Positions 14,141 to 22,747 of a stretch of DNA of 64,000 nucleotides are shown here, one piece after another; the stretch's first letter is position 1, and each line of letters opens with the position of its first letter. Position numbers and translations under genes: made by a program. The DNA comes from Candidatus Multivoradales bacterium (GTDB lineage: Bacteria; Acidobacteriota; Thermoanaerobaculia; Multivoradales; JAHEKO01): assembly GCA_965223155.1 (NCBI GenBank), contig CBDCVR010000014.1, positions 704,001-768,000 on the forward strand, in the 5' to 3' direction. The notes below the pieces were generated by a model. That model ran no database searches. It was not told the DNA's origin and saw only the letters and a program-made list of their open reading frames with translations.

Positions 14141-15562
14141 TCAGTCAGTATACACCTCGGTATTCGGGTAGAACGCGAACCAGCCGAACCAGAAGGCGGT
14201 GTGGCCGGCGATTCGCTCCAACCCTCCTTGCTTGGCCGTCGTCGGCTCGAGAGCGAGCTCGCCGGCGCGCCAGCGCCCCCCCTGCTCGTCCTCCAGGACC
14301 CAGGGTTCGGCGGTGCCGCGAAAGCTCCGCTCGCCGGCGTCGTAGGCGCGCACGGCCCTCGCTTCTTCGGCTGCGACCAGCACGATCTTGCGCCCGCCCA
14401 CTTCGTCCTGGGTGACGCCGCGTTCGAAGAGGCCTGCCAGGGAATAAGCCTTGGCCACCCCCTCGAGGCGCAATGTATAGACCTCGGTGTCGCGCTCGAA
14501 ACGGTCGCTCTTGAGCCAGACCGGAAACGCCACTCCCTGCCGCGCGCGATCGGCGGCACCGGGCAGATACCGAAATCCGAACTTGCGGCCATGACTGGCT
14601 TCGAGCGCCTTGAGATCCAGGACTCGAGTGTCGGGATGGCTCGCCAACCAGTCCTCCCATGTCGTCACCGTCGCGGGCAGAACCTCGAGCTGGATCGGAC
14701 TGTTGGCCAGCCGTCCGAAGACCGGCTCGCCGGTGAGGTTGCTCCACAGACTGTAGGTGGACCGGTCCAGCATGAGCTTGTTGCTCCGGTACAGCAATCC
14801 CGAGGTCTCGAAGATGCGCCGCCCTCCGGAAGGTGTCGACGCGTCGTACAGAATCCCTGAGCCGCACAGGGTACAGAAGCTGAGGGTGACCGGCCGGCCC
14901 GCGATCGTGTCGTTCAGCATCTCGTGCCACGACATGATTCGGTGCGGGTAGGCCCGCGCCTCGCCGTCCACCAGCACGCCGAAAACGCGCTCGTCCGGCT
15001 TGAGATAGCGAGCCTCGGCGCCGGCAAGGGTGGGCGGATCCATCAGAGCCGGGATTCCCGCCAGGCGCACGCCCCCGGAGACCACCTCTTCGAGCCGAAT
15101 CCGGGCCGGCGCTCCCGGGTAGAACACCTTGCGGTACTCGGGGTCGATCTTCTGCAACAGAGCGCTCTTCCACTCCGGATACAGGGGGCCCGGGGTGAGG
15201 TCCTCGCGCCGGCCCACGAACTCGATCCACTCGTAGTAGCCCGAGTGTTCGACCCCGGTCAGCTCTTGAAGCACCGAGAAAATCTGCTTTCGGTTCTGGT
15301 AGGGAACGAAGAAAACCGTATCGACCAGCGCCGGCACCAGGGAAAGATCCGCCGAGCCGGCCAGAGAGCGCGCCGCCTTCTTGCGAACCTTGGCCTCCGG
15401 CGACATCAGGCGCGAAACGCTCCGGTAGAGCTCGCGCCGGGCATCGTCGGCCGCCGGATTGGGCGTTTCGCCAGGTGTCGGATCAGCGCCCGCTGAGACC
15501 GCTCCGTGGACGGCGGCCGCCGTCCACGAGACCAGCGCGAGAGCGGCGAGCGCGCGCTTCAA
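14141..15562 (-). CDS. DUF3179-domain protein (CxxC)
   Basis: GIPAL, ARAYP, WHEMLND, FCTLCGSG, SGLLYRSN, DRST.SLW and FWFGW.AFYP.T motifs; signal peptide. Confidence 0.85.
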   Translation of the reverse strand: MKRALAALALVSWTAAAVHGAVSAGADPTPGETPNPAADDARRELYRSVSRLMSPEAKVRKKAARSLAGSADLSLVPALVDTVFFVPYQNRKQIFSVLQELTGVEHSGYYEWIEFVGRREDLTPGPLYPEWKSALLQKIDPEYRKVFYPGAPARIRLEEVVSGGVRLAGIPALMDPPTLAGAEARYLKPDERVFGVLVDGEARAYPHRIMSWHEMLNDTIAGRPVTLSFCTLCGSGILYDASTPSGGRRIFETSGLLYRSNKLMLDRSTYSLWSNLTGEPVFGRLANSPIQLEVLPATVTTWEDWLASHPDTRVLDLKALEASHGRKFGFRYLPGAADRARQGVAFPVWLKSDRFERDTEVYTLRLEGVAKAYSLAGLFERGVTQDEVGGRKIVLVAAEEARAVRAYDAGERSFRGTAEPWVLEDEQGGRWRAGELALEPTTAKQGGLERIAGHTAFWFGWFAFYPNTEVYTD

Positions 15563-16833
15563 CGCGACGAGTCCGCTCCAGAATCCAACATCGCCGCGTA
15601 GCGGCGAGCCTCGGCATGGGTTGCGTCGAGGCGCAGCGCCCGTTGCAGATGATGCCGGGCTCGATCGAGGCTGCCGGTGGCGACAAAGACCTTGGCCAGG
15701 CCGACGTGAACCTCCGGCACTTCGCTGTCGGTGCGCAAGGCGCGGCGCATGTACTCCAGAGCGGTTCCGGGATCCCCCTCCGCCAGCGCCTGCTCGCCCC
15801 GATAGACGAAGAAAAAGGGATTGGTCTCGTTGACCTGCTCGAGCTCGTCCAGTAGCACCTTGGCCCGGTCCAACTCACCCAGCTCCTGGTAGGTGCGAGC
15901 CAGGTTGCTCATGATCGGCACGCTGGCGGGATGGAGTTCGAGCCCACGCGAGTAGAGCCTGGCAGCGTCGTCCAGCCTCCCCTGGCGCAAGTAGATGATG
16001 CCCAGGTTGTTCACCGCCTTCTCGAAGTCCGGGGCCAGAGCGGTGGCGATTCTGAGATGCGGCTCCGCGCTTGCGACATCGCCCTCCATCAAGGCTTCGG
16101 CGCCCAGGTTGTTGTAGAAGTGGGCCATCGCCGTGAGGTCGTCGATGGGTTTGAAGTCCCTGTAGGCCTTGGCCCGGTACGGCAGGAAGTCGAACGTCGA
16201 CAGGTCGCCGTCGATAGTCATCCCCGCCACGATGTGCCCGCGGCTGACCACCACGCCGTCCTTGTAGTTCCAGCGCTGGTAGTCCTCGACCTCGACGTAA
16301 AAGGGATTGAGGCGCTGCTCGCGGGCGATGCCCACGAACAAGTTGACGAACGACAGGCAGTTGCCCTCGCGGGAAAAGAAGGTGTCGCTGGCGTCCCGGG
16401 TCGGCGTCAGCGAGTACTGGAGATCGAGGCCACTGAAGATGTAGTCGATGATCTCCTCGGTCCTGCGTTTCTCGCTTCCCACTGGGCTCAGGATCTCCGC
16501 GACGGCAAGCCGGGTGGCCTCGTCCAACTGGGAGGGAACCTGGACTTGGTGCCGGAGCTCGGCCGGGACGCGATCGAGAGCCTTCTCGGTGACGTAGCGA
16601 TCGGCGTCGAAGGCCTGGTACTGCGAGCATCCCGCCGGCACCAGCCCAACCAGCGCCAACAGGACCACGAGCCCCCGTCCGGCGCCACGCCGGCTCGAGG
16701 GTCTGGAGAAGTTCAGGTTAGACGACATCCGCAAGAACGGGCCGAGATCAGCGGGATCCATGAGATCGACAGAGAGCCGAGTCGCTCGGTGCCTTCCAAG
16801 GAAAGCAAGATCCAGCCCACGCGTCGAATTCAA
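15559..16833 (-). CDS. Transglutaminase-like/TPR lipoprotein
   Basis: GNCLS, GHI and FDF give a candidate Cys-His-Asp triad, followed by TPRs. Lipobox-like PAGC suggests the real start is downstream (about 16728). Confidence 0.7.
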   Translation of the reverse strand: MNSTRGLDLAFLGRHRATRLSVDLMDPADLGPFLRMSSNLNFSRPSSRRGAGRGLVVLLALVGLVPAGCSQYQAFDADRYVTEKALDRVPAELRHQVQVPSQLDEATRLAVAEILSPVGSEKRRTEEIIDYIFSGLDLQYSLTPTRDASDTFFSREGNCLSFVNLFVGIAREQRLNPFYVEVEDYQRWNYKDGVVVSRGHIVAGMTIDGDLSTFDFLPYRAKAYRDFKPIDDLTAMAHFYNNLGAEALMEGDVASAEPHLRIATALAPDFEKAVNNLGIIYLRQGRLDDAARLYSRGLELHPASVPIMSNLARTYQELGELDRAKVLLDELEQVNETNPFFFVYRGEQALAEGDPGTALEYMRRALRTDSEVPEVHVGLAKVFVATGSLDRARHHLQRALRLDATHAEARRYAAMLDSGADSSR

Positions 16834-17053
16834 ACTACGAAGCCCAAAGCTCCAGGGTTTTCAGGCTCTTCTCGAGACCGCTGCGCCAGACCTCCAAACG
16901 GGATCCAAAACATTGGATCCGCCGCCATCCAAGGCCCCGGACACCCCTGCTGCGACAACCGATTCCGACTACCCGGTTCGTCCCGACAACTTCAATTGTG
17001 ACAGCTACTTAGGCCGCCCCTGGAGGCTATCGAAAAGTTGGCAGTGGCCTTGC

Positions 17054-17083: not shown

Positions 17084-17237
17084 TCGCCGCATCGAGCCAT
17101 GGGTCCGCGACGGAATCGACTGTGTCGTTTCAGTCGAAGTTTGCCTGTGGCTCTAAGCATAGTGTGTCCGCGGAATTCCCGAACGGCCATGAGGCCAATC
17201 GGGGATTCCAACTAACCACAACCAAGGAGGTTTGTGT

Positions 17238-20204
17238 ATGAGAAACAGCGTCTTACGCAAGCTGATTGTCTTGGGTGTCGTCGCCGTCCTGGGTGCCGCG
17301 GGTTTCGCGGTTGCTCAGGAGGAGACCGGTAACGTTTACGTCGTTGCCAGCGATACCGATGGCAACCGGCTACCGGGCGTGACGACGACTCTGGACTGCG
17401 GCGCTGGCGCCCAGGTCCAGATCACCGACGGTCAGGGGCAAGCTCGCTTCCTGGCGATCGACCCGGGCAATTGTCAGCTGACGCTCCAACTGGATGGCTT
17501 CGGTACCGTTGAGTACCCGGCCGTCAACGTTCGTGTTGCGCGCAACACCAACGTCGAGGCGACGCTTTCCGCCGCCGTGACGGAGACCATCACGGTCACG
17601 TCTGAGAGTCCTCTTCTCGATGAGAAGAAGATCGGCGCGGGTACGACGATCTCGCAGGTCGAGCTGGAGAAGATCCCGACCGCTCGTGATCCCTGGTCGG
17701 TACTTTCCCAGACCCCGGGCGTCATGGTCGATCGCATCAACGTCGGCGGCAACGAAAGTGGCCAGCAGTCGACGTTCACCGGTCCCGGCGTGTCGGACGA
17801 TGAGAACGCCTTCCTCGTGGATGGCGTCGAGATCACCGACATGGCGGCCGTTGGCGCTTCCTCGACCTACTACGACTTCGACCAGTTCACCGAGATGCAG
17901 TTCTCGACGGGTGGCACCGACGTCACCAAGTCGGCGGCCGGCGTTTCGGTCAACCTGGTGACGAAGCGTGGCACCAACGAGTTCCGCGGTTCGGCCCGCA
18001 TCCTGCGCACCGACTCGAACGCGTTCGACGTCTTCACCCAGACGATCAACGTGCTGGAGTCCGGCAACGCGGACCTGGCCGACAACCAGTCGGGCTTCGT
18101 CGGCAACAGCATTCGCCAGATCACGGAATACGGCCTCGAGGCCGGTGGTCCGGTGATGCGCGACAAGCTCTGGTTCTGGGGCTCGTTTGGCAACAACGAC
18201 ATCCGCAACCGCACCGGCGGCCGCACCCTGGCTGACGTCCAGAGCGACGACACCGTGCTCGAGAACACCGCGTTCAAGTTCAACGCGTCGCTTTCGGGCT
18301 CGAACTCGGCTCAGGGTTCGTGGAACAACGGTGACAAGCAGAAGTTCGGCCGGAACGCCAGCCCGACCCGCCCCCAGGCCACGGCCTGGAACCAGCGTGG
18401 TCCCTCGGCGATCATCAAGTTCGAAGACACCCACGTCTTCAGCTCGAACTTCTTCCTCGGCGGCACCTGGGCGAAGGTGGACGGCGGCTTCGGCCTGACC
18501 TGCATCGCCTGCGCCGGCGCCGGCAGCCTCGAGGCCACGCCCGAGACTTCCTGGACCGCCGATGGTGTCTGGCAGAACAGCTTCCTCTCGGGGAACTCGA
18601 GCCGTCCGTCGGAAGAGATCAAGGTTGACGGTAACTACTTCTTCAACACCGGTTCGACCAACCACGAGATCAAGTTCGGCGCTCGCGAGCGCAACTTCGA
18701 GACCGTGAGTAACTTCAACTGGGCCGGCCGCGACATCTTCGTCGTCGACCTCGGCCTGTTCGGCGTTCCGGGTAACACCGAGTACGTGGTCGCCCACCGT
18801 GGCGCGACGCCTCTGATCTCGCAGGACTACACGTCCTTCTGGGCTCAGGACACGATCAGCGCCGGTGACTGGACGGTCAACGTCGGTTTCCGTTGGGATC
18901 AGCAGGAGGGCTTCAACGAGGCCTTCTCGATTCCGGCGAACCCCGCGTTCCCGGATCTGCTTCCGGCTCTGTCGATCAACGGCATCGATCCTGGTTTCGA
19001 CTGGGACACGATCTCGCCGCGTATCGGCGTGACCTACGCTCTGGGTGAGGAGAACAAGACTCTCCTCCGGGCGAGCTTCGCTCAGTTCCCCGAGCAGCTG
19101 TCGACCGGCAACATCCAGCAGGTCAACCCGCTGGGTGACGCCTACGCCTACCTGGTCTACGACGACGCCAATGGCGACCTCGTCTACCAGGAAGGTGAGA
19201 CCATCCTCGGTCTCGACGGTGCCACCAACTTCGATCCGTCGAACCCTGGTTCCACGGTCAGCCCGAACCGGACCGACCCGAATCTGGATCCGTCGATCAC
19301 CGACGAGATCCTGCTTTCGGTCGAGCACGCGTTCCTGCCCGAGTTCGTGGCCGGATTCAACGTCACGCTGCGTAACACCAGCGACCTGCTCTCCGCTGAG
19401 CGCGAGATCATCGTCGATCCGGTTACCGGTCAGACCCGTGTCACCACGGCGGCTGATTTCGTCCAGGACGGCACGGTCAGCGGCACGCTGCCCGATGGCT
19501 CGACCTACAACGAGCCGGTCTTCGCGATCTTCTGTGGCAGTGCCTGCCGTACCGGCGGTTCGCTCCTCGAGAACACCGACCGCGAGGTCGAGTACGAGGG
19601 CTTCGGCGTCAACTTCATCAAGCGCCTGTCCAACCGCTGGATGCTCCGTGGCTACTTCAACTTCGGCGAAGGTGAGTACAGCCTCGGCAACTCCTACGTC
19701 GCGAACTACGACCCGAACAACGGTGAGGGTGGATTCGACGACGCGGGTGGTCTCTTTGCGGTCCAGGCTGCCGGTTCCGGTGCCAAGCAGGACGTGTTCC
19801 TCCAGAGCTCGTACCAGTGGAACCTGAACGGCATGTACCAGGTCGCTCCCGACCGTCCGTGGGGCTTCAACGTCGCGGCCAATCTCTTTGGTCGTGAAGG
19901 CACCCCGCTGCCGTACTACCACCGGGCTCGCCAGTCCGATGGCATCCGGCGCGACATTCAGGTCACGAGCGGTATCGACTCGTTCCGTTCGGACGACGTC
20001 AACACCGTCGACCTGCGGCTCGAGAAGGAGTTCGCAGCGACCGGAAACGTCGGGTTCACGGTCAGCATCGACGCCTTCAACCTGCTGGATGAGAGTTTCG
20101 TCCTGCAGCGGCGTCGTCAGACGAATACTTCGCAGTTCGACTGGGTCACCGAGACCCTGTCGCCGCGGATCTTCCGTCTGGGCGTCCGCCTGAACTGGCG
20201 GTAA
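17238..20204 (+). CDS. TonB-dependent receptor with N-terminal carboxypeptidase-regulatory-like domain (Oar-like)
   Basis: Signal peptide, ETITVT, IPTARDPW, TKRGTNEFRGS, SPRIG.TY and C-terminal PRIFRLGVRLNW. AAGGAGG RBS before ATG 17238. Codon choice (GGT, CGT, TTC, AAC) suggests high expression. Confidence 0.92.
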   Translation: MRNSVLRKLIVLGVVAVLGAAGFAVAQEETGNVYVVASDTDGNRLPGVTTTLDCGAGAQVQITDGQGQARFLAIDPGNCQLTLQLDGFGTVEYPAVNVRVARNTNVEATLSAAVTETITVTSESPLLDEKKIGAGTTISQVELEKIPTARDPWSVLSQTPGVMVDRINVGGNESGQQSTFTGPGVSDDENAFLVDGVEITDMAAVGASSTYYDFDQFTEMQFSTGGTDVTKSAAGVSVNLVTKRGTNEFRGSARILRTDSNAFDVFTQTINVLESGNADLADNQSGFVGNSIRQITEYGLEAGGPVMRDKLWFWGSFGNNDIRNRTGGRTLADVQSDDTVLENTAFKFNASLSGSNSAQGSWNNGDKQKFGRNASPTRPQATAWNQRGPSAIIKFEDTHVFSSNFFLGGTWAKVDGGFGLTCIACAGAGSLEATPETSWTADGVWQNSFLSGNSSRPSEEIKVDGNYFFNTGSTNHEIKFGARERNFETVSNFNWAGRDIFVVDLGLFGVPGNTEYVVAHRGATPLISQDYTSFWAQDTISAGDWTVNVGFRWDQQEGFNEAFSIPANPAFPDLLPALSINGIDPGFDWDTISPRIGVTYALGEENKTLLRASFAQFPEQLSTGNIQQVNPLGDAYAYLVYDDANGDLVYQEGETILGLDGATNFDPSNPGSTVSPNRTDPNLDPSITDEILLSVEHAFLPEFVAGFNVTLRNTSDLLSAEREIIVDPVTGQTRVTTAADFVQDGTVSGTLPDGSTYNEPVFAIFCGSACRTGGSLLENTDREVEYEGFGVNFIKRLSNRWMLRGYFNFGEGEYSLGNSYVANYDPNNGEGGFDDAGGLFAVQAAGSGAKQDVFLQSSYQWNLNGMYQVAPDRPWGFNVAANLFGREGTPLPYYHRARQSDGIRRDIQVTSGIDSFRSDDVNTVDLRLEKEFAATGNVGFTVSIDAFNLLDESFVLQRRRQTNTSQFDWVTETLSPRIFRLGVRLNWR

Positions 20205-20228
20205 GCCGAACCTCAATCTTTGAGGTCC

Positions 20229-20262
20229 AAGGGCCGGGGGGCAACCCCCGGTCCTTTTTTTT
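20229..20262 (+). terminator. Rho-independent terminator
   Basis: AAGGGCCGGGGG-GCAA-CCCCCGGTCC hairpin followed by T8, immediately after the receptor stop codon. Confidence 0.92.
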
Positions 20263-20310
20263 ATGCCGGCGCACCAGAGGCAAGCGCCCGCGCCACGAGG
20301 CCCGGACGTT

Positions 20311-20795
20311 CGGCCGGCGGGAGCGCCGGGGGACGGCGGCCGCCAGGAGGCTTGCGACGACTCGGCGTCCGCCTGCACGCGGCTACGCGCAAGCCAATGA
20401 GAGTTCCTGAACCTTGGTTCCTAGCGCTTGCCGCGAGCCCCCGGATGTCCTGCCGGCTTCGGTCCTGAAGCGACTCTGAAGCCACGGTATCGGGAAGCGA
20501 AACGGCTCGCGGCCCTCCGACGACTCCAGGAGCCAAAGCGGTAGACCTTGAACGAGCCCGGCGGGAGTGATTGCCCTGGAACGACCCACAAGAAGGCCGT
20601 CCCCATGAGGCGGCAGAGCTGAGACTGAGGAGCGGGCGGTGGTTGTGCGGGGCTCGGACCGAGCGCCCGGAACCACGAACTGAGGCCCCTCTCGAGCCGG
20701 TGCGAAGGTCGGCGCAGGGCCGCGTCCACCACTCCAGAGGCCTCCCAGCGCGGCCCGTCCCGCACGGCACCGTCCGCTCCCAGCCGACAAGGAGG
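20311..20795. repeat. ~480-nt direct repeat, copy 1 (candidate structured ncRNA or MITE)
   Basis: Aligns with 20891-21376 at offset ~580, with scattered substitutions and small indels. Confidence 0.9.
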
Positions 20796-20890
20796 CGGGC
20801 CCGGCCTTCATCCCCGAGGACCGGAGCAGACAACAGACGCGGGAGACCCTTCGGCCGAACTCCGCACGTCCGATCCGTTGGGCGGGCCTC

Positions 20891-21376
20891 CGGCCGGCGA
20901 GAGCGCCGAGGGACGGCGGCCGCTAGGAGACTTGCGAGGACTGGCGTCCGCCTGCACGCGGCTTCGCGCAAGCCAGTGAGGGCTTCCGGAACATTGATTC
21001 CGAGCGCTTGCCGCGAAGCCCCCCGGACGTCCTGCCGGCCTCGCTCCTGAAGCGACTCTGAAACCGCGGTATCAGGAAGCGAAACGGCTCGCGGCCCTCC
21101 GACGACTCCAGGAGCCAAAGCGGTTGACCTTGAACGAGCCCGGCGGGAGTGATTGCCCTGGAACGACCCACAAGAAGGCCGTCGCCATGAGGCGGCAGAG
21201 CTGAGGCTGAGGAGCGGGCGGTGGTTGTGCGGGGCTCGGACCGAGCGCCCGGAACCACGAACGGAGGCCCCTCTCGAGCCGGTGCGAAGGTCGGCGCAGG
21301 GCCGCGCCTACCAACTCGGAGGCCGAACAGCGCGGCCCGTCCCACACGGCACCGCCCGCTCCCGGCCGGCACGGAG
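20891..21376. repeat. ~480-nt direct repeat, copy 2
   Basis: Shares long identical tracts with copy 1, e.g. GAACGAGCCCGGCGGGAGTGATTGCCCTGGAACGACCCACAAGAAGGCCGTC. Confidence 0.9.
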
Positions 21377-21616
21377 AAACGAGTACAAGGTCCTTGGAGC
21401 CGAGGACGGCAGCGACAAAACCGCACCGTCTTCCGAGGCGATCGAGAGGAAGTCGAAGCGTCGTCCTAAGATGCGCCGTGCCTGCCAGCCTGACCATGCC
21501 CCCGCGCCACGCCCTGGCTTTCTTCTTGCAAAAAGGCCCTGTAGTAGACTCGCGAAAGGCGTTCCGACGCCTTTTGCTCACAAGTTTCGACAAGGTTTTT
21601 CCAGGAGGGAAAGAGG

Positions 21617-22747
21617 ATGTCTCGCAAGCAATTCGCCAGTCTGGCGGTGGTCGCGGTAGCCAGCTTGGCGGTCGCGTCGGCGCCGGTTTTCGCGCAGTCT
21701 TGGGCAGGGAAAGGGCGTGCATTCGGTTCGGTCAAAGACGACAAGGGCAACCCGATCGAGGGCGCCCGCATTCAGATGTACAAAGACGCCGAGGGCAACG
21801 GCCCGGGGCCCAAGTACACGGACAAGAAGGGCAAGTTCGGCTTCGGCGGCCTGGGCGGCGGTCTCTGGACCGTGCTCATCGACGCCGACGGCTACAAGCC
21901 CTCTCAAGGCGCGTACGCGGTCAACGAGTTCCAAGCCGGCAAGCCGGTCCAGATCGTTCTGGTTCCAGATCCCTTCGGCGTCATCTCGGTGGGCGACGGC
22001 CTGCTCGAGGAGAAGAAGTACGCCGAGGCGCGGGCGGCCTACGAGAACGCGCTGGCCCAGCTTCCCGAGGAGCAGGCGGCAAGGCTTCGCTCCCGCATCG
22101 GCGACACCTATCTCGAGGAGGGCAATGCCGAGGCGGCCCGAGCCGAGTACCTGAAATCGCTCCCTCTGATTCCTGAGGCCGAACAGGCTCATATCCGCCT
22201 CCAGCTCGCCAAGACCTACGAGTTCGAGAACAACAACGAGGCGGTTCGCGGCGAGCTCGAAAAAGTCCTCGAGATCCTGGACCCGGCGGCGCAGGGTCAG
22301 GTGCTCCTGATGATGGCGCGCTCGTTCGACAGCGACGGCCAGACCGACAAGGCCATCGAGACCCTTCAGCGCGCCCTGGAACTGGATCCCGAGAACGTCC
22401 AGCTGCTGCAGATCACCGCCGACTTTCTGACGCGTACCGGCCGCGAGGACGAGGCCCGCGAGTACCTCGCGCGCCTTCCGGAAGACGTCACGCTGCCGGC
22501 CGACATGGTGCTCAACATCGGCATCCGGCTCTACAACGAAGGCGACGTGGACAAGGCATTCGGCTACTTCAACCGGGCCGTGGACGAGAATCCGAGCCTG
22601 GCCGAGGCGTACTACTACCGGGGTCTGGTCAACCTCAACCGCAACCAGACCGAAGAGGCAAAGGCCGACTTCGGCAAGCTGCTCGAGCTCGATCCCGAGT
22701 CCGCGCACGCGGCGGAAGTGAACGAGTTTCTCAAGTATCTCAACTAG
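21617..22747 (+). CDS. Exported carboxypeptidase-regulatory-like domain + TPR protein
   Basis: Signal peptide, G.VKDDKGNPIEGA, TDKKGKF, TPRs; AGGAGG/GAGG upstream of ATG. Confidence 0.88.
   Translation: MSRKQFASLAVVAVASLAVASAPVFAQSWAGKGRAFGSVKDDKGNPIEGARIQMYKDAEGNGPGPKYTDKKGKFGFGGLGGGLWTVLIDADGYKPSQGAYAVNEFQAGKPVQIVLVPDPFGVISVGDGLLEEKKYAEARAAYENALAQLPEEQAARLRSRIGDTYLEEGNAEAARAEYLKSLPLIPEAEQAHIRLQLAKTYEFENNNEAVRGELEKVLEILDPAAQGQVLLMMARSFDSDGQTDKAIETLQRALELDPENVQLLQITADFLTRTGREDEAREYLARLPEDVTLPADMVLNIGIRLYNEGDVDKAFGYFNRAVDENPSLAEAYYYRGLVNLNRNQTEEAKADFGKLLELDPESAHAAEVNEFLKYLN

Follow-up and report, generated by a model that had tools for sequence, protein, structure and literature searches.

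Tandem ~480-nt intergenic copies in a Candidatus Multivoradales genome are inverted doublets of a dispersed structured repeat

REPINs are doublets of repetitive extragenic palindromic (REP) sequences that are mobilised by RAYT transposases. Larger palindromic repeats occur in enterobacteria (ERIC/IRU) and in neisseriae (Correia elements). The bridge RNA of IS110 is encoded in the non-coding end of the IS110-family recombinase gene, and IS110/IS1111 elements target REPs. For prokaryotic MITEs (miniature inverted-repeat transposable elements) a census exists (PMC11602168). Here we describe an intergenic element that is present as two tandem ~480-nt copies in a 64,000-nt stretch of the genome of a Candidatus Multivoradales bacterium (the whole stretch is called the window, the genome G000, and three of its congeners G001, G002 and G003). 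Each ~480-nt copy is an inverted (+,−) doublet of a ~150-nt repeat, the module, with a ~190-nt unconserved spacer. With a probability of roughly 0.6, the copies are inverted doublets of a dispersed intergenic repeat that forms a REP/REPIN/MITE-like family. Coordinates are positions within the window unless a contig (C13, C14 or C15) is given.

The module was represented by a covariance model (R1; 152 positions, 22 pairs) built from an alignment, A3, of 28 copies from G002, three 5′ parts of the G000 element and four array units from C13:1077481-1078242. R1 matched the window four times, on the + strand at the 5′ end and on the − strand at the 3′ end of each ~480-nt copy, and revealed the same +/− layout in a further copy on C13. 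The ends of the element can indeed pair, as the original prediction had claimed; the two modules in inverted orientation explain this pairing. In total, R1 found 11 modules in G000: three doublets (six modules), four array units and one singleton (C15:1144346-1144493). An nhmmer search with the middle part of the doublet matched only G000's own copies, and the relatives matched only the 5′ module. All inverted pairs less than 500 nt apart were (+,−), comprising the three of G000 and 7 of 7 in six other genomes (five loci from five genomes and two in G002), the latter with gaps of 78–394 nt and unrelated spacers. The sole (−,+) pair, G002:C348, was separated by 1.2 kb. The features of the locus are listed below.

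17232-20204, + strand: Oar-like TonB-dependent receptor gene (Pfam OMP_b-brl_4, CarboxypepD_reg, Plug)
20229-20264, + strand: intrinsic terminator of the receptor gene, outside the repeat (12-bp G+C-rich stem, then a T run)
20303-20794, no strand: doublet A, consisting of module A1 (+), spacer and module A2 (−) (repeat search, alignment, BLAST, R1)
20312-20458, + strand: module A1, a full-length family member (R1 101.4 bits, E 9.8e-19, model positions 1-152)
20459-20648, no strand: spacer inside doublet A (~190 nt; homologs only in G000's own doublets)
20649-20761, − strand: module A2 core (R1 39.4 bits, E 3.8e-6, model positions 19-130; found again in the whole-genome search)
20795-20882, no strand: inter-doublet spacer from A to B (poorly conserved, alignment columns ~500-600)
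20883-21376, no strand: doublet B, tandem repeat of doublet A (91.1% identity to A; contigs of runs X1 and X2)
20892-21044, + strand: module B1 (R1 100.1 bits, E 1.8e-18)
21231-21343, − strand: module B2 core (R1 44.7 bits, E 3.1e-7, model positions 19-130)
21617-22747, + strand: downstream gene, encoding a protein with CarboxypepD_reg and TPR domains (Pfam)

The closing arms of module A2, judged by eye, reach ~20631-20783, and the consensus fold of the three copies (alifold) contains a 13-bp closing stem at 20631-20643/20771-20783. No promoter-like site was found in 20000-21700, and the sole terminator-like sites there were the receptor's own, upstream of doublet A.

Copies A (20303-20794) and B (20883-21376) are direct repeats with 91.1% identity over 495 columns (BLAST). 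A repeat search of the window resolved them into four collinear blocks with start-to-start distances of 579-582 nt and gave 95% identity for a 300-nt core block (20438-20737/21020-21319), and in the MAFFT alignment similarity dropped sharply over ~90 nt beyond each copy. Tandem Repeats Finder reported nothing for the pair because its period of ~580 exceeds the program's limit of 500. Logan contigs from runs X1 and X2 (two samples of one study, which may be the window's own source) covered 20743-21104 with 0 differences; since they bridge the end of A, the spacer and the start of B, the arrangement is real and not an assembly artefact. The original prediction that two ~480-nt copies lie between the receptor terminator and the next gene was borne out by the BLAST identity and the bridging contigs. 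Its further claim, that the copies differ by 1-2-nt indels and are non-coding, also held: such indels are present in the MAFFT alignment, and open reading frames (ORFs) over the copies had flat G+C contents of ~0.7 at all three codon positions (GC1, GC2 and GC3), i.e. no coding signal, vs GC3 of 0.83-0.84 and GC2 of 0.40-0.46 in the flanking genes (receptor frame 17193-20204, TPR frame 21548-22747). The two longest ORFs overlapping the copies had no Pfam match. At 20442-20567, one low-depth contig (run X4) had 38 other letters in place of 124 nt of spacer; similar to the shortened copy on C13, this variant is either a spacer polymorphism of the population or a further paralog. Farther upstream, the real gene at 15559-16860 was judged to lie on the minus strand from its codon-position GC (GC3 0.83, GC2 0.43), and the plus-strand ORF at 15931-17001 (356 aa) had no Pfam match and showed the GC pattern of an antisense frame.

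A 490-nt query located four places in G000, namely A, B, C13:1024237-1024637 and C14:1325085-1325178, the last being a 94-nt fragment on the minus strand. The third copy, on C13, lacks element positions 165-253 (~90 nt of the spacer) and sits behind a receptor paralog (C13:1021211-1024401, 86% identity). A second receptor paralog (C15:1306909-1309891, 93% identity) runs into a contig end. The ~480-nt unit is ~92% conserved between the C14 and C13 copies vs 86% for the adjacent receptor gene, with lower values for the flanks. The element was duplicated along with the receptor gene and its terminator, and additionally within the window, where the two copies arose by local tandem duplication of one doublet. 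The three receptor paralogs share 86-94% identity, and the duplicated segment extends approximately from the gene start to the doublet end. Loose contig ends suggest further unassembled doublet copies, the C15 paralog terminating its contig. At the start of the C13 doublet, ~26 nt of its 5′ outer arm are directly duplicated (C13:1024200-1024262). The array at C13:1077481-1078242 consists of four tandem modules, all on the minus strand and repeated every ~203 nt, and is located in a ~950-nt convergent intergenic region.

The range of the module family was determined with R1 at E ≤0.001 in relatives (the tallies include G005, which has no module match). Matches were obtained in 37 of the 101 relatives, including 28 of 44 genomes of family f1, to which G000 belongs, and all four congeners. 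Protein-atlas neighbours of the receptor are consistent with placement of G000 in the Acidobacteriota. The nine positive genomes in four other families of the order mostly had one weak match each, with 12 in G038 and 13 in G055. A class-wide sample yielded 10 positive genomes among 151, all from the same order, and R1 matched 0 of 114 genomes in families of other orders (f13-f22). The R1 counts were 11 in G000, at least 30 in G001 and in G002, and 24 in G018 and in G028, so that the proposed check of copy number in this and related genomes showed 11 copies in the former and multiple copies in the latter. Copy number varied widely among G000 and its congeners (11, at least 30, at least 30, 6 and 2), and the repeat core is kept across at least 19 genera.

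The element's homology to G002 was confined to positions ~15-145, which matched at six places; the sequence there is an imperfect palindrome of ~190 nt whose centre is very conserved. G002 contains 31 exact instances of an 18-nt core motif and 15 more that differ from it at one position, on both strands; with up to two mismatches the motif had 22 forward and 37 reverse matches vs 2 and 6 for a reversed-pattern control. Several of the matches are close to contig ends (a few hundred bases away at most), and truncated and nested module copies are visible in this genome. Model pair 81-135 is G-C in all seven plus-type copies of G000 and C-G in 25 of 28 copies of G002, and such a genome-specific pair signals amplification within each genome. 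R1 confirmed none of 80 loci carrying a short gapped motif (at least 118 such stretches in unrelated high-GC taxa); these loci serve as a control of R1 specificity and are uninformative on distribution.

Comparison with Rfam 15, which had been proposed as a check, gave no match overlapping any module (window 19500-22500, seven loci and 20 further loci; E up to 1), with RNase P, tmRNA, 6S, OLE, ROOL, GOLLD and HEARO among the families that did not match. The sole matches in 19500-22500 fell on the terminator and were below the gathering thresholds (BjrC68, 26.3/39 bits; suhB, 19.8/41 bits). A description of the family was absent from the literature searched, including for the core motif string; the supplements of the MITE census (PMC11602168) were outside this search and could contain the family. 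The repeat family seems undescribed.

The module has a core of ~150 nt, or ~190-215 nt with outer arms, and forms a long imperfect palindrome. Its conserved apex is branched: P1 closes it, P2 forms a hairpin at the side, P3 and P4 are further helices, and the hairpin at the tip is variable; the R1 unit comprises five helices and the branch point over 152 positions. The outer arms in G002 are inverted repeats of ~30-38 nt that vary between copies with compensatory changes, and the P2 loop and the tip hairpin are hypervariable even among the copies of one genome. In the C13 array, P2 forms a perfect 9-bp stem, with a sequence unlike that of any other subtype. Covariation was evaluated in A4, an alignment of 43 R1 matches from many genomes fitted to the model. 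Standard pairs were formed by 93.6% of cells, a share inflated by the fitting, vs 31.6-50.1% when the 3′ partners were slid by 1-3 columns. Both-sided changes were found in 18 of 22 pairs, and the covariation score was 0.412 vs at most 0.087 for slid partners, with 0 of 500 shuffles reaching 0.412. Compensatory pairs had been seen before the model was built (RNAalifold on a MAFFT alignment), at 45-83 (GC 14, CG 13) and 50-78 (GC 19, AU 7, CG 3). The covariation that the original prediction had proposed looking for was therefore found, but in the ~150-nt module, the fold of the whole element showing no excess.

Pairing in the module was nearly all of the Watson-Crick type: among 881 cells of 21 pairs in A4, 832 were Watson-Crick, 5 G-U, 14 A-C and 30 other. 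The minimum free energy (MFE) z-score of module A1 was −3.37 on the + strand and −3.20 on the − strand, and in four of six modules tested singly z was about −3 to −5 on both strands; the unusual stability was absent in the other two, the window's truncated 113-nt minus core and a copy of a different genus. When 62 modules were folded with their 20-nt flanks, the MFE structures contained 342 G-U pairs among 4177 (8.2%) in sense and 288 among 4119 (7.0%) in antisense, and the antisense strand was slightly more stable (38 modules vs 23). A one-strand RNA signature, i.e. a G-U excess with one strand more stable, was not seen in the modules tested. Watson-Crick swaps and strand-symmetric folding fit a DNA-level palindrome, or show no strand preference.

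The ~480-nt copy as a whole folded unremarkably, with z = −0.41 on the + strand and −1.86 on the − strand against shuffles. A consensus fold of the three copies contained 25 variable pairs on the + strand (14 kept, 11 broken, 1 compensatory) and 36 on the − strand (18 kept, 18 broken). Some differences between A and B keep pairing through G-U on the + strand, as had been stated, and the alignment and three-copy fold showed few of them. The stems that had been listed as conserved are all present in the sequence, with differing outcomes. The pair GGGCCGCG/CGCGGCCC forms P2 in the module on the minus strand, a helix that covaries across the family. The stem GCTTGCG/CGCAAGC is not conserved, since in the family 55.7% of its cells pair vs 56.0 on average in shuffles, with at least as high a value in 327 of the 500 shuffles. 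The GTGGTT../..AACCAC block is invariant among the three copies and competes with the family consensus.

The genomic setting of the modules was assessed with genes called by a crude GC3-based ORF rule. Of 70 modules, 36 were co-oriented with their upstream gene and 18 ran opposite to it, the gene being uncalled for the other 16. Forty-five modules had genes called on both sides, of which 19 lay in convergent, 23 in co-directional and three in divergent regions; the co-directional regions contained 15 sense and eight antisense modules. Singletons were sense in 23 cases vs 13 antisense, a difference that was not significant (hand count). All G000 copies are downstream of gene 3′ ends, and many modules begin 12-130 nt past a co-oriented stop codon. 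REP families have the same preference for convergent over divergent regions (PMC3733652).

The contents of the spacer between the receptor and TPR genes differ among the congeners, with two doublets in G000, one module in G001 and none in G003, and divergence among these genomes is too great for insertion boundaries to be defined. In G003, the TPR ortholog follows the receptor ortholog after ~155 nt with only a terminator between them. The gap in G001 measures ~1.9 kb, in which one module is accompanied by a fragment of an IS110-like transposase and by a different palindromic repeat. This second repeat, unrelated to the module (core GGGGACACC..GGTGTCCCC), stands in inverted orientation on the two sides of the ~1.7-kb insert in G001; it occurs ~100-150 nt past the receptor stop in G001:C251, upstream of the TPR gene in G001:C237, and in G002:C254. 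The flanks of ~10 G002 copies, inspected by eye, showed no consistent direct repeat. G000 contains 17 matches to PF02371 (IS110 family; e.g. C13:303001-303240 and C14:304229-304468), 16 of which are in 364-aa open frames with the same E-value, and this insertion sequence, which looks recently active, also occupies several small contigs.

The idea of a single large structured non-coding RNA (ncRNA) gene per ~480-nt copy, tandemly duplicated, is almost certainly wrong. The unit is better conserved (~92% between C14 and C13) than the receptor gene (86%) or the flanks, its ends are able to pair, and a few differences keep pairing by G-U on the + strand. However, it consists of two inverted members of a dispersed repeat, its middle ~190 nt have no homolog outside G000, and the third copy lacks 90 nt of them; the spacers of doublets in other genomes are unrelated (78-394 nt), G003 has an empty site, no Rfam family matches, and the whole fold has an unremarkable z with 11 of 25 variable pairs broken. 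On the module decomposition, the spacer loss in C13 and the z values of −0.41/−1.86 this candidate was rejected, and the single large ~480-nt structured RNA of the original prediction was accordingly abandoned in favour of two inverted modules with an unconserved spacer and no remarkable joint fold.

A different RNA-level explanation, which we regard as unlikely, is that the module is mainly a cis-acting RNA in the 3′ untranslated region of the upstream gene, where its hairpin stabilises, processes or insulates the mRNA and doublets serve convergent genes. The position of many modules 12-130 nt past co-oriented stop codons would fit it, as would the orientation of upstream genes (36 same vs 18 opposite; 15 sense vs 8 antisense in co-directional regions), the core conservation across at least 19 genera and the 7 of 7 close inverted pairs outside G000 that are (+,−), each module being sense to the nearer convergent gene; REP families are thought to work so (PMC3733652). 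Against this, G-U accounts for just 5 of 881 cells in the covarying helices, rarer than A-C (14), both strands fold equally well, and the sense bias of singletons is weak (23 vs 13). One module of each window doublet is antisense to both flanking genes, and the receptor terminator lies upstream of the doublets, so that read-through is needed for transcription into them. It is very improbable that a recombinase or nuclease relies on the module as a DNA site or guide-like scaffold RNA, in the manner of IS110 bridge RNAs, TnpB omega-RNAs or integron attC, with the two variable loops setting specificity. The conserved branched scaffold with its hypervariable P2 loop and tip hairpin resembles such a design, Watson-Crick-only pairing fits folded DNA substrates, G000 has 17 IS110-family matches, and an IS110-like fragment adjoins the module at the orthologous site of G001. 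Yet none of 20 IS110-like and 10 Y1 loci contained a module, no consistent neighbour gene turned up beside modules (no systematic search was made), and the variable loops of G000 modules matched their own genome over 11-16 nt only, with E ~0.01 or higher.

Returning to the dispersed intergenic repeat, we infer that the family behaves like REP/REPIN, ERIC or MITE elements, as non-coding DNA whose copies would slowly increase in number inside each genome. The conserved core, folded and probably in single-stranded or extruded form, would be the target of an enzyme acting in trans. Copies would survive mainly downstream of genes, where little harm is done, and would probably be co-transcribed into mRNA 3′ ends, any effect at the RNA level, e.g. 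3′-end protection, being secondary. The alternative offered in the original prediction, a non-autonomous mobile element, agrees in part with these results: the repeat is probably non-autonomous, is multi-copy, occurs in many genomes and is absent from Rfam.

Several results weigh against this reading. The comparisons yielded neither a transposition event nor a target-site duplication, nor a precise pair of empty and filled sites, the intergenic DNA of relatives being too diverged to align, and R1 found 0 modules within ~1.5 kb of 20 IS110-like (PF02371; five genomes) and 10 Y1 (PF01797) loci. No parent autonomous element turned up at the IS110-like or Y1 loci, the two transposase groups searched. 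Y1_Tnp occurs in 84 of 101 relatives and is similarly frequent with modules (30 of 37 genomes) and without them (54 of 64), which indicates no association; no Y1_Tnp match was obtained in G001, which is 99% complete and contains at least 30 modules. Unlike in typical MITEs, conservation in the module is highest at the centre, and the ends are variable. Conservation across at least 19 genera suggests long persistence or function, and the three doublets of G000 can be explained by tandem and segmental duplication, with no mobility of the doublet. The mild sense bias (36 vs 18 of 54 called upstream genes) and the exclusively (+,−) orientation of close pairs could point to a transcription-related constraint. 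The crude gene calls and the inflated share of paired cells in A4 count on the same side. A bolder proposal, and a quite improbable one, is that the modules are the substrate or guide scaffold of a RAYT-independent, vertically inherited replicator of one acidobacterial order, a REPIN-like population in which a single-copy enzyme would read the conserved branched DNA or RNA fold, the two hypervariable loops would confer specificity and the (+,−) doublet would be the functional unit.

For annotation, the analysis removes the false lead of a new large ncRNA and replaces it with an order-specific structured repeat that has strong covariation, 10 to at least 30 copies in a genome, and no Rfam entry or paper found. 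Repeats of this type are easily mistaken for ncRNA genes and break metagenome-derived assemblies, copies being located at contig ends. R1, A3 and A4 could seed an annotation family. Should the family be a true long-lived replicator without RAYT, the REPIN concept would be widened beyond REPs of the Proteobacteria type.

Compared with known systems, the family resembles REPs and REPINs in consisting of multi-copy intergenic palindromes, often as inverted pairs with a spacer (PMC3733652, PMC3116915, PMC3337134), in its mainly co-directional and convergent locations (PMC3733652; 23 and 19 of 45 modules, respectively), and in forming genome-specific populations that are apparently vertical and long-lived in the lineage (PMC3733652, PMC3116915, PMC3337134). 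It differs in the size of the module (150-215 nt with a branched conserved apex, whereas a REP is a 20-40-bp hairpin), in the window's doublet halves, which are diverged subtypes and form no near-perfect hairpin, and in the lack of association of modules with Y1/RAYT genes (10 Y1 loci; 101 relatives). GT pairing, which according to PMC3733652 is frequent in REP stems, is rare in the module. With MITEs, ERIC and Correia elements the module shares the 100-200-nt size class, outer arms that are inverted, a dispersed intergenic distribution in which some copies are nested or truncated, and a copy number that differs widely between congeners. Its ends vary with compensatory changes and its centre is conserved, the reverse of a transposase-bound terminal inverted repeat; by eye no target-site duplication was seen (~10 G002 copies), and no parent insertion sequence was found at IS110-like or Y1 loci. 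The IS110 bridge RNA is likewise a structured unit of ~150-190 nt with internal variable loops, G000 is rich in IS110-family copies, and one IS110-like fragment adjoins a module in G001; by contrast, 0 modules were found at 20 PF02371 loci of five genomes, and G001 contains at least 30 modules vs four PF02371 matches.

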